The notes beneath the pieces were generated by a model, which made no database searches, had not been told where the DNA came from, and saw only the letters and a program-made list of their open reading frames with translations. A stretch of DNA of 61,438 nt, counting the filler, from Platydemus manokwari (Eukaryota), in assembly GCA_037951405.1 (NCBI GenBank). It is 5 parts of 5 records of this genome, joined end to end, with 100 filler letters (N's around TTAATTAATTAA, not from the genome) between each part and the next. Parts side by side here need not be neighbours in the genome. Positions count along the whole stretch, not along the records: positions 9,497 to 26,195 come from JBBMOY011151437.1; 4 more parts are not named here. The stretch is one strand, 5' to 3'. A program made the position numbers and the translations under genes. Positions 19,251 to 25,799 of this stretch are shown here, piece after piece. The first letter of the stretch is position 1; each line of letters starts with the position of its first letter.

Positions 19251-20270
19251 ATTTAAATCATACAAAAAATGTAATATTACAATTAGGAGGTGCAATAAAA
19301 TCTCATAATGACATCCGTAAATAATATCGTCATCAACATCATCTCATTACTTTCGGCATGAATAAATTGAGGCAGTTAAGCACTGGTTATAAAATTAATA
19401 CAGCAGTACCTAGCGGCATTAATCCTGTGTACAACAATTTTCCAATTACAATATAGAAATTAAATCCATTTTTTTCCGTAAAAATATTTTATAAAATTTT
19501 ATAAAACTATTAATGAAATGCGAGTTATTAAAATCATTAAAACTTGTGTGGTTTTTCATCTCACTGATGAGATCTACTACTGAAGAATCTAGGCGCTTTG
19601 CAACATGTTTCAACTCACGTGAAGTTATGTAAATCAAGTATATCAATATAATAAAAATAATAATAACAATACTAATTATAATACTAATAATAACAATAAT
19701 AATAATAATGATAATATTGAAAATGATATAAGCATAAAGAAACATTTAGAATTTCGAAAATTTAAATGAAGTCAAATTTGAAAAACAAATTCAATATTCA
19801 AGTTCTTGTTACCATGTGTTCACAATTACATAGCAAATGTCACCATGTGGGTTGATATGAATATGAATTGGTTTGTCTTTTTTTGGTTTTAATTTATTCA
19901 AAAATTTTGATTTTCGGTGCATTTATCGATAGTGAATTGATCATTTTAGCCTTGACTTATCTAGTTGTTGACTTTAGATGATTTGTACCCATGATCATTA
20001 TGTTAAATTTATTATGGATTATTTTGAAATTTCATGAATCTCAAATGATTATTAATTTAACTTTTAAAAGTTTAAGCAACCTCATTTTAACAGATAATAG
20101 TAGTAGTATAATGGTTGTTTCTTTTCAAACCCTACCCATAAATTCGAGCGAAAGAAGTGAGGACACGATACAACCATTATACCATTACCTATAAAAAATA
20201 TAGAATAATTAAACTAAAAATAAAAAACAATCATAAAAATAATTTTCCCATTAAAAAATATTTATTAAAA

Positions 20271-20400
20271 ATGATTGATCTCGACTTGGAATTTTATTGT
20301 GAAAGATGTAATAGATATTTTAAAACAAAAACCGCATAAATAACTCATGGAAAATCTAAGGAACATATTGTGAAATACAGTGCATCTATTTATAACTATG
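20271..20400 (+). pseudogene. Inverted paralogue of the pPolB N-terminal Zn finger
   Basis: MIDLDLEFYCERCNRYFKTKTA*ITHGKSKEH versus MIETKTIFYCEKCKKYFKTKTAQISHEKSKKRK at 25456 (-). Confidence 0.75.
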
Positions 20401-21299
20401 AAATAACTTTACTTGTTACCACTCGCTTTTTCTAAGCCTTTCTGGTATAGTTTTGGAGAATTCTATATGAGTGAAAATAATAAACCCTTGATAATATTTG
20501 GATTCGTGGAAGTTTAACTTTAAATCTAAATTTACTCAGGTGTTTTCTGGAGTAAAATTTGAGAGTTTTACTTTTGTCTTTCTTGTTCAATGCGTTTCTG
20601 GAAAAGAAAGTTGTACTGGAGCAAAAGATGGAACTGTATTCTTGGATAATAATCATGGAACAGAGTATATATGTATTGATAATTGTTCTTTTCCTTATTA
20701 GAGAAAGAAATGGAATTTAATGACTAGAAAACCTAGATTATAAATTTATCAATTTTATAAAAAAATTATGAAAATGGAAAGAATTGTATTTACTTAAATG
20801 ATAAATTACTTAAAGAATTAGATAAACCATATGAAATAAATTTATTGGTAATATATTTCCTGATAGGCCATCAAAGAGTAATCTCTTGGAATTTATAGTG
20901 ATTGATAATGGTTTTTATAGTAAAGCACAAAATGAAATCATAAATTTATTTAAAGAAAATTATCCTGATTTGTTATATTATTGAAAATTCTATTGAAAGG
21001 AAGGGGAGGGAAGGACCTTCGTTTAACCTCGTTCAAATTTTATATTTCATTGAAGGGAAGGAACTCCATTCGAAAGTATTTCATTCAACTTTGTTCAAAA
21101 ATTATATTTATTTTCAGAAAAAGAATGGAAAGGAATTTCGTTTGAAATATTTTCATTCAACTTTTTTCATTAAAAGCTTAGAGGATCAAAAACTTTATCG
21201 CTCTCGTGAAAGCTTTGAAGAAAAAGAGAAAGAGAAGGAACTTCATTCAACTTCGTTCAATAATCTAAGTTCTCCATTCGACTCAAAGGATATAATTCC

Positions 21300-22130: not shown

Positions 22131-25100
22131 TCATTGATGACCATGTGGCCAAGTTATAACTCCATTATTATCTATTAATCTTTTTTCATCAAATGGGGAT
22201 GATTCTTTAATTATTTTATCATAATTCATTTTGTTGAAAATATGATTTTGATTTAATAAAATATTGAATTTTTATTGTTTCATTGGGAACGTTATCTTTA
22301 ATCATTTTTAAATCATTTCCTATATATGGTCTTAATTTATTCTCTTCATCTTTTCATGTTTCACCGAAATATAAAATAAACTCTATAAATAAATTATCAG
22401 TATCTCCGAAATGTATTTTATATTTATCTCTGAATAATTTATCTAAAACATCATAAACAAATTTATACATAATTAATTTAGAATATTCTAAAACAATTAA
22501 ATTTATAATTAAATAATTAAATTTATCAAATTTTATTTATGATTTTTTCATATGACATGCAGCTATTTGTGGAATGAAAATCCTTGCTCTTTTGAATGTT
22601 AATTTCGATGCTAATAATTGAAATTCTCTATTAGTTGAAACTATTGATATATTCAATCTTTTCCATAAAATGAATTATTTAAAAGTTTCAAAAATACTTC
22701 TCCAAATTTATGTCCTTTATTCTTTGCAATAGTTCTTTGTTCAATATTATGTTTTATATATCCTTCTAAACATCTTGATTTTTTCAATTTTATTTTTTTA
22801 TGAACTTTTATTAAAATCATTTCCTGTTTAATGAAATAATCTAATAAAGATCCTTATACAATATAATTCCGTTTATTAAATTGAGTTAACAATAGTTTTT
22901 CTGAATAAACACCAGTTCCATCTTTCAAAACACTAGGTCGGTTATTTAGTTGATACTCTGATAATAAACTATCATTAACTTTAAATTTCTCTGGACATAA
23001 ATACTTTATTCTATCATGAATCTCTCTTGGATAATCCAAATCAATCTCGTAAATAAATCCTATCTCATCAGATGTAGTTAATTCATAAATTGGTTCAACT
23101 TTTTCAATTTCTCCCGTTGTTGAAGGCATAGTCATACAAGTTGCAAATAATGAATTTGCATCATAATATTTTGAAAATCTTTCTTTAAAATAAAAAGACA
23201 TATCAAAATCACCTTTTATAAAATCATTAATTATTTGATCCCATTCATGTTCTTCTAGTTCATAATAATTATCAAAGTTTTTATTTGTTATTCTATTTGA
23301 AATAACTTTCTATTTCCATGAACTGAATAAATCTTACTTCTAATTCCCTTCTCAATTAATAATAAATGATTATATGTTTCTGGTTTAAAATATTTTAGTT
23401 TTACTTTTGATTATTTTAATCCTGCATGCCATGATAATCCTGGTGTAGAATAACAATAACATGGATCTAAATCATAATGAGTTAAATATGTTTCTCTAAA
23501 TTTTTCATAGAAATCAACTAAGATTAAAACATCTGTTTTCATATAGAACATTAAATATTCTCTTAAATTACGAAAATTTTTATAATCATTTTGAAAATAT
23601 TAATAATCATCTTCTGAAATTTCACATTGATCTATTCGTGAAAAGAAGTCATTTATTGTAATAATGTTCGAAATATTATTTAATAAAGCATTTACTTCTC
23701 TAAATTTATTTCCCCTTATATAATCATTTGAAAGAAAACTTTTCTTTGGTTTTAATTTAAATGATCTTAATATGTTATATTTATTTGATTTTTCTAAAAT
23801 TTCACCTAAATCTTTTACTGACTTTCCAGTCATTCTAAATGAATCTTATATATAAATGAAACATATATATTCCTAATCAGGTCTTGGAATAATTTTATAT
23901 TTAGCTTTTGGATATTTGCTTATTAACTCTAGAAAATAGAAATGGAAATCATATTTTGAACAATTATGAAAATAACATGAGATAAAGAAATTCTTTAATG
24001 ACTTATCATTTAAGTTACATTTATTATGTGAAGCACCTCAATATTTTAGTTCCGTTTAAATGATCATGATTTTTTACTTTAACAGAGTCCCTCTCATTAT
24101 GAAATTCTTTTTTACATTAAATACAAGATTTTGCATTATTAAAATTTATTAAATCTTCTCCTGCTAATATCATTTCTACATTTTTATTCTTAATTATTCT
24201 TGTTATTTTTTATCCAGATCTACAATATAATAGATTCATTGATATTCAGCTTGGTCACCATAAAATCCATAATATTCAGAGCTTAATATATCGGGATAAT
24301 TTGATTTTAAATTTATTCCAGTTGAAAGTGGTTGTTTTTATTATTTATTTTATTATAAGATTCAAAACATGCACAAAGTACAAAAGGAATCTTATTTCTA
24401 TGATGATAATTTTTAAATTCACAATAATCATTTTTTGAAAATGTTGCTTTTGTTTCTTTAAAATCTTGACACAATCTTCTATGTTCTTTTAATAAATCTA
24501 AAGATATGTAAGAATTTAAATACTTTAAACATAGCTAATTTGAATGATTATTATTTGTAAATGGATTCATATTTCTACAAAAAACATAATGATCTTCATA
24601 CATTAATAAATTGCATTGTCTATTTTCAATTGTTGGTTTTGTTTTATAGTGTTAGAAATAAATATGAACTAATTTCTTATTTTTATTTACTCCAAAAACA
24701 TTCACACTTAAATTATTTTGTTTATTGAATTTCTTAATGTCTTCAATCTTCATTGGAAAGTTAATACCATTTGAATTTAATTCATTCATAAAAGGAAGAT
24801 ATTTTCCTACCCTTTCAGAATGATCATGAGCTGGATGTAAATATGCTAAAATATATGATGAATGAAAAGGTACACTAACATGAGTACTTCCAACTAATGA
24901 TTAATATTTATAAATATTTATCGTGATAAAATCTATTTTTTCATGAATCCAATCAGATCCAGTTCCTTGAAATTCTTGAATAAAACCATCAATATTCTCA
25001 AGATAAACAATAACACAATCTTCATATTATTTATATTCGTTATTTTTTCAAGTTGAGAATAAAATATTCTATTGAATTTCTTTGAATAATCGTTTTCATG

Positions 25101-25456
25101 ATCAAATTGAGATGAGATTTCTAGATAAAATTCAAATCAAGCTCTATGATAACTAAATGATTCTCTAATATATTTACTATTTCAGTCTTGAAACTGAAAA
25201 CATTTGTTTTTTCACATAATGTTTTAGTTAAAGATATTTGAATATTTATAAATGCCTGACATTCATAACCTAGTTTTCTAAAATTCCTTTTTAACTTATT
25301 CATTTCATTTACTATTTCTTGATCAGACAAATAACTCATTTCAAAATTCACATCATATTTTCGTTTCTTTGATTTTTCATGAGATATTTGTGCAGTTTTT
25401 GTTTTAAAGTATTTCTTACACTTTTCGCAGTAAAAGATAGTTTTGGTTTCAATCAT
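22131..25456 (-). pseudogene. Protein-primed type-B DNA polymerase (Polinton pPolB) with N-terminal C2H2-like Zn finger; many stops and frameshifts
   Basis: Motifs appear in the expected order: FYCEKCKKYFKT; QGTGSDW; GINFPMKIEDIKKFNKQNNLSVNVFG; NHDHLNG...HNKCNL; FHNCSKYDFHF; YMKTDVLILVDFYEKFRETYLTHYDLDPCYCYSTPGLSW; YYDANSLFATCM; GFIYEIDLDYPREIHD; FGDTDNLF; SPFDEKR...TWPHGH*. Confidence 0.92.
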
Positions 25457-25799
25457 TATTGACTTTACTTTTTTTATTGGATTTTATTTTACTTTTTAAA
25501 TTTTATGAACTTTTTTATATCCACATAGTAGTTATATAATGGCTAATCAAAGCCTAAAATGTTTTTTAAAAGATGGAAAAAATTGATGAATTGCAAAATG
25601 TGAAAATTAAGAGGCCTGAGTAGGTAAACAGGATAGAAAAATAGAGAGTTTTAAAAATTGATAATTTCTTGGATTTGCTTATTGGCTTTGATTAAACATT
25701 ACATAACTATTGATAGTGACAAAAGATAAAAACAATACCCAAATGATCGATAGATCTAGTAAGAAAGATTCCGATAAACACAAAAAAGACTTATAAACA

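Follow-up and report, generated by a model that had tools for sequence, protein, structure and literature searches.

Intact vertebrate Mavericks end in 5'-(AGT)2//(ACT)2-3', are flanked by 6-bp duplications, carry matched terminal repeats of 46-1,447 bp and measure 12.7-24.6 kb, according to Barreat and Katzourakis (PMC8097293). A retrovirus-like (rve) integrase is required of Polintons by definition (PMC5499653), and a panhandle origin formed from matched repeats is the stated model for protein-primed elements (PMC4046053). Here, we analyzed a stretch of 61,438 nucleotides (nt) from Platydemus manokwari (GenBank assembly GCA_037951405.1; five genome parts joined end to end, hereafter the window) and found in it, at 20099-25711, a unit of 5,613 bp that is a bounded, dead Polinton derivative with unusual ends. 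Compared with Polinton/Maverick elements (polintoviruses, adintoviruses; the nearest complete one being locus L002), the unit has in common the polymerase type, the membrane-protein family, the AGT-type motif, a probable 6-bp duplication and the inward-facing modules, whereas it has one third of the size, is without a detected integrase, ATPase or capsid gene, and has ends that match over only about 16 bases, each forming a separate local hairpin whose loop and distal stem differ from those of the other. Our preferred explanation, for which we consider the chances evenly balanced, is that the unit is a dead copy of a reduced, non-autonomous Polinton from a mobile short family, which would have replicated with a protein-primed polymerase of its own and been inserted by the integrase of full-size relatives.

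Several reduced or rearranged relatives have been described. Butterfly Polintons have coding sequence repeated at both ends, like the unit, and polB-less butterfly Polintons lack a core gene, as the unit does, yet appear to spread (Pannagram preprint, 10.1101/2025.02.07.637071); their repeats are matched, about 2 kb long and contain capsid and protease genes while the polymerase is missing, whereas the unit keeps the polymerase, lacks integrase and capsid, and has diverged cassettes. Nine Polintons without capsid, protease and ATPase lost the morphogenesis module and kept the polymerase, as seen here; the passage describing them (PMC4028283) reports no loss of integrase, whereas the unit is without a detectable one. 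Linear plasmids derived from Polintons also kept the polymerase and lost the morphogenesis module, but they are cytoplasmic (PMC11071308), whereas the unit is chromosomal with a probable integrase-type duplication. The bidnavirus segment VD1, with about 6 kb and a Polinton-derived polymerase, resembles the unit as well, although it encodes a superfamily 3 helicase and a capsid and its repeats form no hairpins (PMC4061559). Among titles and abstract openings, we found none describing integrase-less or hairpin-ended short Polintons, the founding papers of 2006-2007, Repbase and supplements lying outside this search.

The unit and its immediate flanks comprise the following features.

20093-20098, no strand: left copy of the probable 6-bp target-site duplication, GATAAT (5/6 match to 25712-25717)
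20099-20189, plus strand: left terminal hairpin; the outer arm opens with AGTAGTAGT and the inner arm, 20162-20189, contains CCATTATA (22/28 positions pair)
20190-20270, plus strand: leader of the left gene, A-rich and preceded by a TATAAAA box, putative promoter (sole TATAAAA in 20091-20275)
20271-20984, plus strand: broken left gene, a jaz-type zinc finger (codons 8-32, one stop; PF12171 E 6e-4) and a frameshifted body
20995-21329, plus strand: spacer with 4-5 decayed copies of a short GAAGG...TTCG/TTCA repeat (repeat families D2, D3, D5; aligned by eye)
21265-21975, plus strand, limits approximate: broken gene of a two-transmembrane hairpin protein (all-helical, SLATT/2TM-like fold), frameshifted near 21450 and placed by the family alignment
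22130-25456, minus strand: broken protein-primed polymerase gene (profile E 1e-41; PF03175 E 1e-4, below cut-off)
25457-25526, minus strand: leader of the polymerase gene, A-rich, with a TATAAAA box at 25519-25513, putative promoter
25527-25711, minus strand: right terminal hairpin; the inner arm, 25527-25559, contains the CCATTATA motif and the outer arm is 25679-25711 (27/33 positions pair)
25712-25717, no strand: right copy of the probable target-site duplication, GATAGT (5/6 match to 20093-20098)

The unit is larger than the approximately 5.4 kb first proposed. The original prediction considered ends near 20100-20170 and 25545. The CCATTATA motif does not mark the boundary but forms the inner hairpin arm on either side, and the unit extends beyond it to 20099 and 25711. 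The left end matches the Polinton end motif (AGTAGT) exactly, and its AGTAGTAGT at 20099 is the sole occurrence in the window when both strands are scanned. The 6-bp target-site duplications that the prediction had asked for may be present as the flanking 6-mers GATAAT and GATAGT, which agree at five of six positions; such agreement has a chance of 1.2-1.5% per register, and two registers were considered, each giving 5/6 by eye.

Between the two ends, 14 of the first 16 bases are identical, while stem positions 17-28 agree at 3/12 between the ends and pair within each end at 9/12 (left) and 11/12 (right). The unit lies outside the Maverick ranges for matched repeats (46-1,447 bp) and for size (12.7-24.6 kb). 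The loops of the two hairpins are unrelated, since 335 of 500 shuffles reached their alignment score. When folded as DNA, the left hairpin gave a z-score of -4.9 (0/200 shuffles) and the right one of -3.3 (1/200), both computed on regions picked after the fact. As a control, AGTAGT-like 16-mers whose inverted copy occurs no more than 300 nt away were sought on both strands; seven hits were obtained, four of which were these ends with 4-12 further paired bases, and the other three had 0-1. Perfect 12-base inverted repeats occurred at none of 55,175 positions; this requirement is stricter than the observed run of 11 bases, and the result was not counted as support. The 16-base end motif was found in 87 viral stretches, and none of the 80 loci listed carried a relative of the polymerase or the membrane gene at E 1e-5, so we took these matches as chance. 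An AGTAGT hairpin in L001 was rejected, being inside the locus with one further paired base. Two independent mini-elements at the ends were also discarded: neither is at high depth, and by eye neither is flanked by a duplication of its own. Related elements often have short palindromes in their intergenic stretches.

An ordinary fragment from inside a larger Maverick in which the zinc-finger gene was duplicated, and in which ends and duplication are chance features of AT-rich DNA, would be compatible with the imperfect duplication, with such intergenic palindromes, with a left end that is not multi-copy and with the assembly gap 485 bp beyond the right end. Against it, each side combines an end motif with a hairpin and a duplication, depth drops to that of the flanks to the left and right of the unit, and no core gene was detected in the whole window (best E 0.024); we regard this fragment as improbable. 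Of the two alternatives left by the original prediction, the minimal form without integrase and capsid fits better on these same grounds.

The zinc-finger starts at ATG 20271 (+) and ATG 25456 (-) were borne out. They give rise to an inverted pair (20292-20364 and 25363-25435) of 73 nt with 82% identity, whose alignment score was reached by 0/500 shuffles and which is the longest ordinary inverted pair in the window after the gap linkers; both starts match PF12171 slightly below the cut-off. Upstream of the ATGs, the CCATTATA motif was located at a distance of 97 nt on the left (start at 20174) and 86 nt on the right (start at 25542), compared with the about 90-100 nt noted originally. A-rich leaders following the motif do exist, but they are not clearly alike beyond composition (40/500 shuffles reached the score). 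At each end, a TATAAAA box stands directly inside the inner hairpin arm and may serve as a promoter. After the zinc fingers, no alignment between the arms was obtained (386/500 shuffles reached the score).

Over 22 codons of the zinc fingers, with one stop codon omitted, there were 6 synonymous changes in 11.7 sites and 5 non-synonymous changes in 54.3 sites, giving proportions pS of 0.51 and pN of 0.09 (p 0.006). Judging from this codon pattern, the zinc fingers are selected paralogues, which diverged while still coding, before the window copy died. The arms are therefore not two halves of one decayed repeat, and a decayed, formerly identical terminal inverted repeat (TIR) was rejected by the codon pattern together with the unrelated loops. 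Because the zinc fingers diverged as selected paralogues, no long matched terminal repeat is present. The proposed open reading frames (ORFs) starting inside TIRs were thus not upheld: the arms are diverged paralogous cassettes, and the ends match over about 16 bases.

The predicted pPolB module was confirmed by a profile built from 23 related polymerases (E 1e-41), but all three genes inside the unit, encoding the zinc finger and body, the two-helix membrane protein and the protein-primed polymerase, are broken. In the polymerase gene, whose lower limit is at about 22130, the 7 matched segments are interrupted by 15 stops and 6 frame changes in total. Its thumb region is short, with 64 nt between two thumb motifs compared with 71-96 codons in 11 of 12 relatives with a pattern match. 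Relatives of this polymerase carry PF02945 (endonuclease VII), and the window sequence aligns to that region without a Pfam match itself. HNH-bearing Polinton polymerases (pPolB2) have been described (Jeong et al., 10.1101/2023.08.22.554363). A zinc-finger start is known but not general among related polymerases, being present in 1 of 19 long polymerases from viral contigs and additionally in L030 and P0004.

The membrane gene is 82-90% identical to P0005, which belongs to a Polinton accessory family (alignment A2) of 163 representatives without a Pfam name. The model of P0005 has three long helices with a hydrophobic hairpin (predicted local distance difference test, pLDDT, 88.6). In a viral fold search with this model, two of at least 500 matches passed E 1e-3, both being unnamed iridovirus proteins, and SLATT-type rows were weaker; against the PDB, there was no match at E 1e-3. 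The modeled fold of the family is thus similar to that of the iridovirus proteins and, to a lesser degree, to SLATT-type proteins with two transmembrane segments from large DNA viruses. In adintoviruses, GasderminX has a gasdermin C-terminal-like fold with a pX-like tail (PMC8502044). GasderminX as a label for the membrane gene was dropped considering the three-helix model and the missing PDB match; a weak pX match in L002 falls in the neighboring gene.

The left gene may be a single gene or a fusion. Its body is possibly ConA/LamG lectin-like, as suggested by a weak similarity (tblastn E 0.023; hhalign probability 0.4-1.4%); no homologue was found, and the lectin identity could not be established. 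In 2 of 10 related contigs, the membrane gene is directly preceded by intact genes, of which one was tested and has the appearance of a ConA-type lectin. A copy related to the spacer repeat lies near 22000-22040, and joints 22051-21038 and 22000-21035 were seen in other copies.

For the linked genes to be checked, neither the unit nor the window gave a positive result. Inside the unit, profiles of the integrase (18 members), ATPase (15), capsid (3) and PLA2 (4) found nothing under E 0.5, with the polymerase at E 1e-41 as a control. Over the window, none of the four profiles went below E 0.024, which was the best value of the integrase profile and fell outside the unit; the ATPase and capsid profiles gave 0.41 and 1.7. 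In related contigs, the integrase profile finds L037 at E 2.5e-21 and the capsid profile finds L029 at E 1e-10, both partial genes. When ORFs of 27 related loci were compared by tblastn, matches at E 1e-3 were confined to the polymerase, and six frame readings of the unit had no Pfam match to a superfamily 3 helicase or a parvovirus-like capsid. Since Polintons encode an integrase by definition, the unit cannot be counted among the autonomous ones and behaves like them only in part.

Related polymerases were present at 23 loci, 18 of which have an integrase ORF and 15 an ATPase. L002, with 16.4 kb and an 804-bp terminal repeat, has integrase, ATPase, capsid, the same polymerase type and a member of the membrane family. 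Among the matches listed, closer relatives of the membrane gene were found in 10 short metagenome contigs, with a convergent polymerase in two. In L030, an intact membrane gene at 3-680 (+) converges with a polymerase at 697-4722 (-), whose 1,341 amino acids begin with a jaz-type zinc finger of the type seen in the window. When viral contigs were scanned with one protein at a time, namely the polymerase piece from the window, P0005, alignment A3 and the polymerase of L030, no relative was obtained for any of them. As the relatives reside in Polintons beside core genes, the genes and gene order of the unit are ordinary Polinton material, and the short form and the ends are its unusual part.

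The same neighborhoods bear on a one-off internal deletion, according to which an autonomous Polinton of full size used its own integrase to insert here and the core block was deleted at this site afterwards. Such a loss could have resulted, for instance, from recombination involving the intergenic repeats, or the zinc finger and the left-gene body; the ends would be real, and the short form would never have moved. The frequency of integrase and ATPase among related-polymerase loci (18/23 and 15/23) is in line with it, and so are the other deletions in the window copy, such as the short thumb region, and the decayed state of most vertebrate Maverick copies (PMC8097293). On the other side, the profile search detected no remnant of any core gene, and a deletion by itself does not explain differing ends when intact Mavericks have matched repeats of 46-1,447 bp.

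Depth, which is the summed depth of short contigs from one sequencing run, possibly the source sample, and not a copy number, was 67-68 up to 20179, 302-41,080 in the bins of 20180-25554, 120 in the right-loop bin and 39-54 to the right of 25770, so the repeat has its limits near the proposed ends. It reached 21,000-41,000 at 20610-21039 and 21255-21899, compared with about 500-3,000 over the polymerase, which suggests a much stronger amplification of these two accessory stretches in the host. Contigs continuing into unlike sequence made up 2% of those aligned, and the six best-supported of 1,064 loose ends had 3-15 contigs each. There was no place in the depth data where many molecules begin or end, which argues weakly for a reduced, mobile Polinton. 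Abrupt changes of depth within the unit and its many joints, several of which involve the spacer repeat, would suit the one-off deletion, whereas the best-supported loose ends are weak and none is a dominant breakpoint. We consider this deletion possible, though somewhat unlikely.

The accessory genes, roughly 10- to 80-fold deeper than the polymerase, could also look as if they were on other molecules. Such a pattern might be expected for an integrated segment of a multipartite, bidnavirus-like agent, in which several short linear molecules share the hairpin ends and zinc-finger cassettes, the present one carrying the polymerase and others integrase and capsid, and the size and inward-facing layout recall the bidnavirus segments (6.5 and 6 kb; PMC4061559). 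However, bidnavirus repeats are without hairpins and the segment encodes a helicase and a capsid according to the same source, neither gene being seen here; the polymerase relatives reside in single-piece Polintons, and summed contig depth is not a copy number. We judge this origin to be very improbable, even less probable than the internal fragment.

Several observations weigh against the reduced, mobile Polinton that we prefer. The right end, ACTATT on the plus strand, is one base off the motif (5/6 to (ACT)2), and the flanking duplication is imperfect at 5/6 with two registers considered. Over the outermost 80 bp on the left, depth does not exceed that of the flank (68 versus 67), and most copies that share the adjoining gene therefore do not share this end. 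Within the unit, depth changes about 20-fold, from 1,604 to 34,076 near 20610, and is 375 in the spacer, which suggests a mosaic. A second copy with both ends was not seen, no listed contig spans the stretch, and no empty-site joint was among the 15 joints listed out of 135. In 37 related loci, of which few include true ends, there was no AGT-type terminal hairpin (six hits, each with 0-1 further paired bases). Among the matches listed, close relatives of the membrane gene adjoin an integrase gene end in 1 of 10 and a capsid gene end in 1 of 10. Finally, the capsid profile is small with its three members, and the core-gene profiles include neither protease nor minor capsid.

The remainder of the window contains other repeats and host genes. 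About 1.2 kb to the left of the unit, decayed reading frames at 16879-18918 (+) had no Pfam match, and we take them to resemble a non-LTR (long terminal repeat) retrotransposon with a restriction-like endonuclease. Two repeat copies at 14994-15640 and 38606-39306 share 77-85% identity (D5, D7, D9, D13, D17), with no Pfam match in three minus frames of the first. Short dispersed direct repeats at 4842-5855 and 5252-8767 have spacings of about 855 and 3,180 bases (D8, D10-D12, D14, D18, D19), and 3-4 copies of a unit of about 117 bases at 234-744 (D4, D6) are possibly a coding repeat on the minus strand. At about 3000-3500 (-), with approximate limits, a translated stretch presumably resembles a Merlin/IS1016-type DDE transposase; a piece partly covering it had no Pfam match. 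Host exons at 39492-39878 (+), 56047-56454 (-) and 57224-59106 (+) include immunoglobulin I-set and Ada3 domains by Pfam, and among the host exons there is also what we assume to be a kinase-like start. A GC content of 22-39% together with these exons points to an AT-rich animal genome. The scaffold gaps at 9397-9496, 26196-26295, 38501-38600 and 48561-48660 each have a palindromic linker between two N runs and are assembly artefacts.

If the unit is a dead copy of a reduced Polinton, the integrase-ATPase-capsid block would have been lost from a full-size Polinton of the endonuclease-VII-polymerase type. As no integrase or capsid gene is detectable, insertion likely depended on full-size relatives, whose Polinton integrase would have carried it out. 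With a TATA box, leader and zinc-finger start at each end, the genes would be read inward from both ends. Because the ends share 16 bases, a long panhandle is not available, and each end can pair with its own inner arm. We propose that each end of a displaced single strand folds back on itself and rebuilds a double-stranded terminal origin locally. Such local fold-back would remove the need for an end-to-end panhandle and stop the homogenization of the two ends; loops, distal stems and zinc fingers could then drift apart while the 16 terminal bases stay conserved. More broadly, though we think it rather unlikely, animals could hold a satellite family of mini-Polintons. These would be linear replicons of about 5.6 kb with a polymerase and two accessory genes, borrowing integrase and perhaps capsids from full-size Polintons. 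In them, two independent fold-back hairpins would replace the matched repeat, and each hairpin would combine the roles of an origin, an end for integration and a promoter driving a gene that starts with a zinc finger.

In the accepted model, the displaced Polinton strand pairs end to end through long matched repeats, and locally pairing ends suggest another route to rebuilding the origin. Were the unit only a deleted fossil, its end structure would still describe a Polinton family in this host, the remainder being ordinary. If the reduced-Polinton reading is true, a form that keeps the polymerase, lacks the integrase and nevertheless inserts with a 6-bp duplication would be an intermediate, located in the chromosome, that links Polinton viruses to linear replicons without a capsid.

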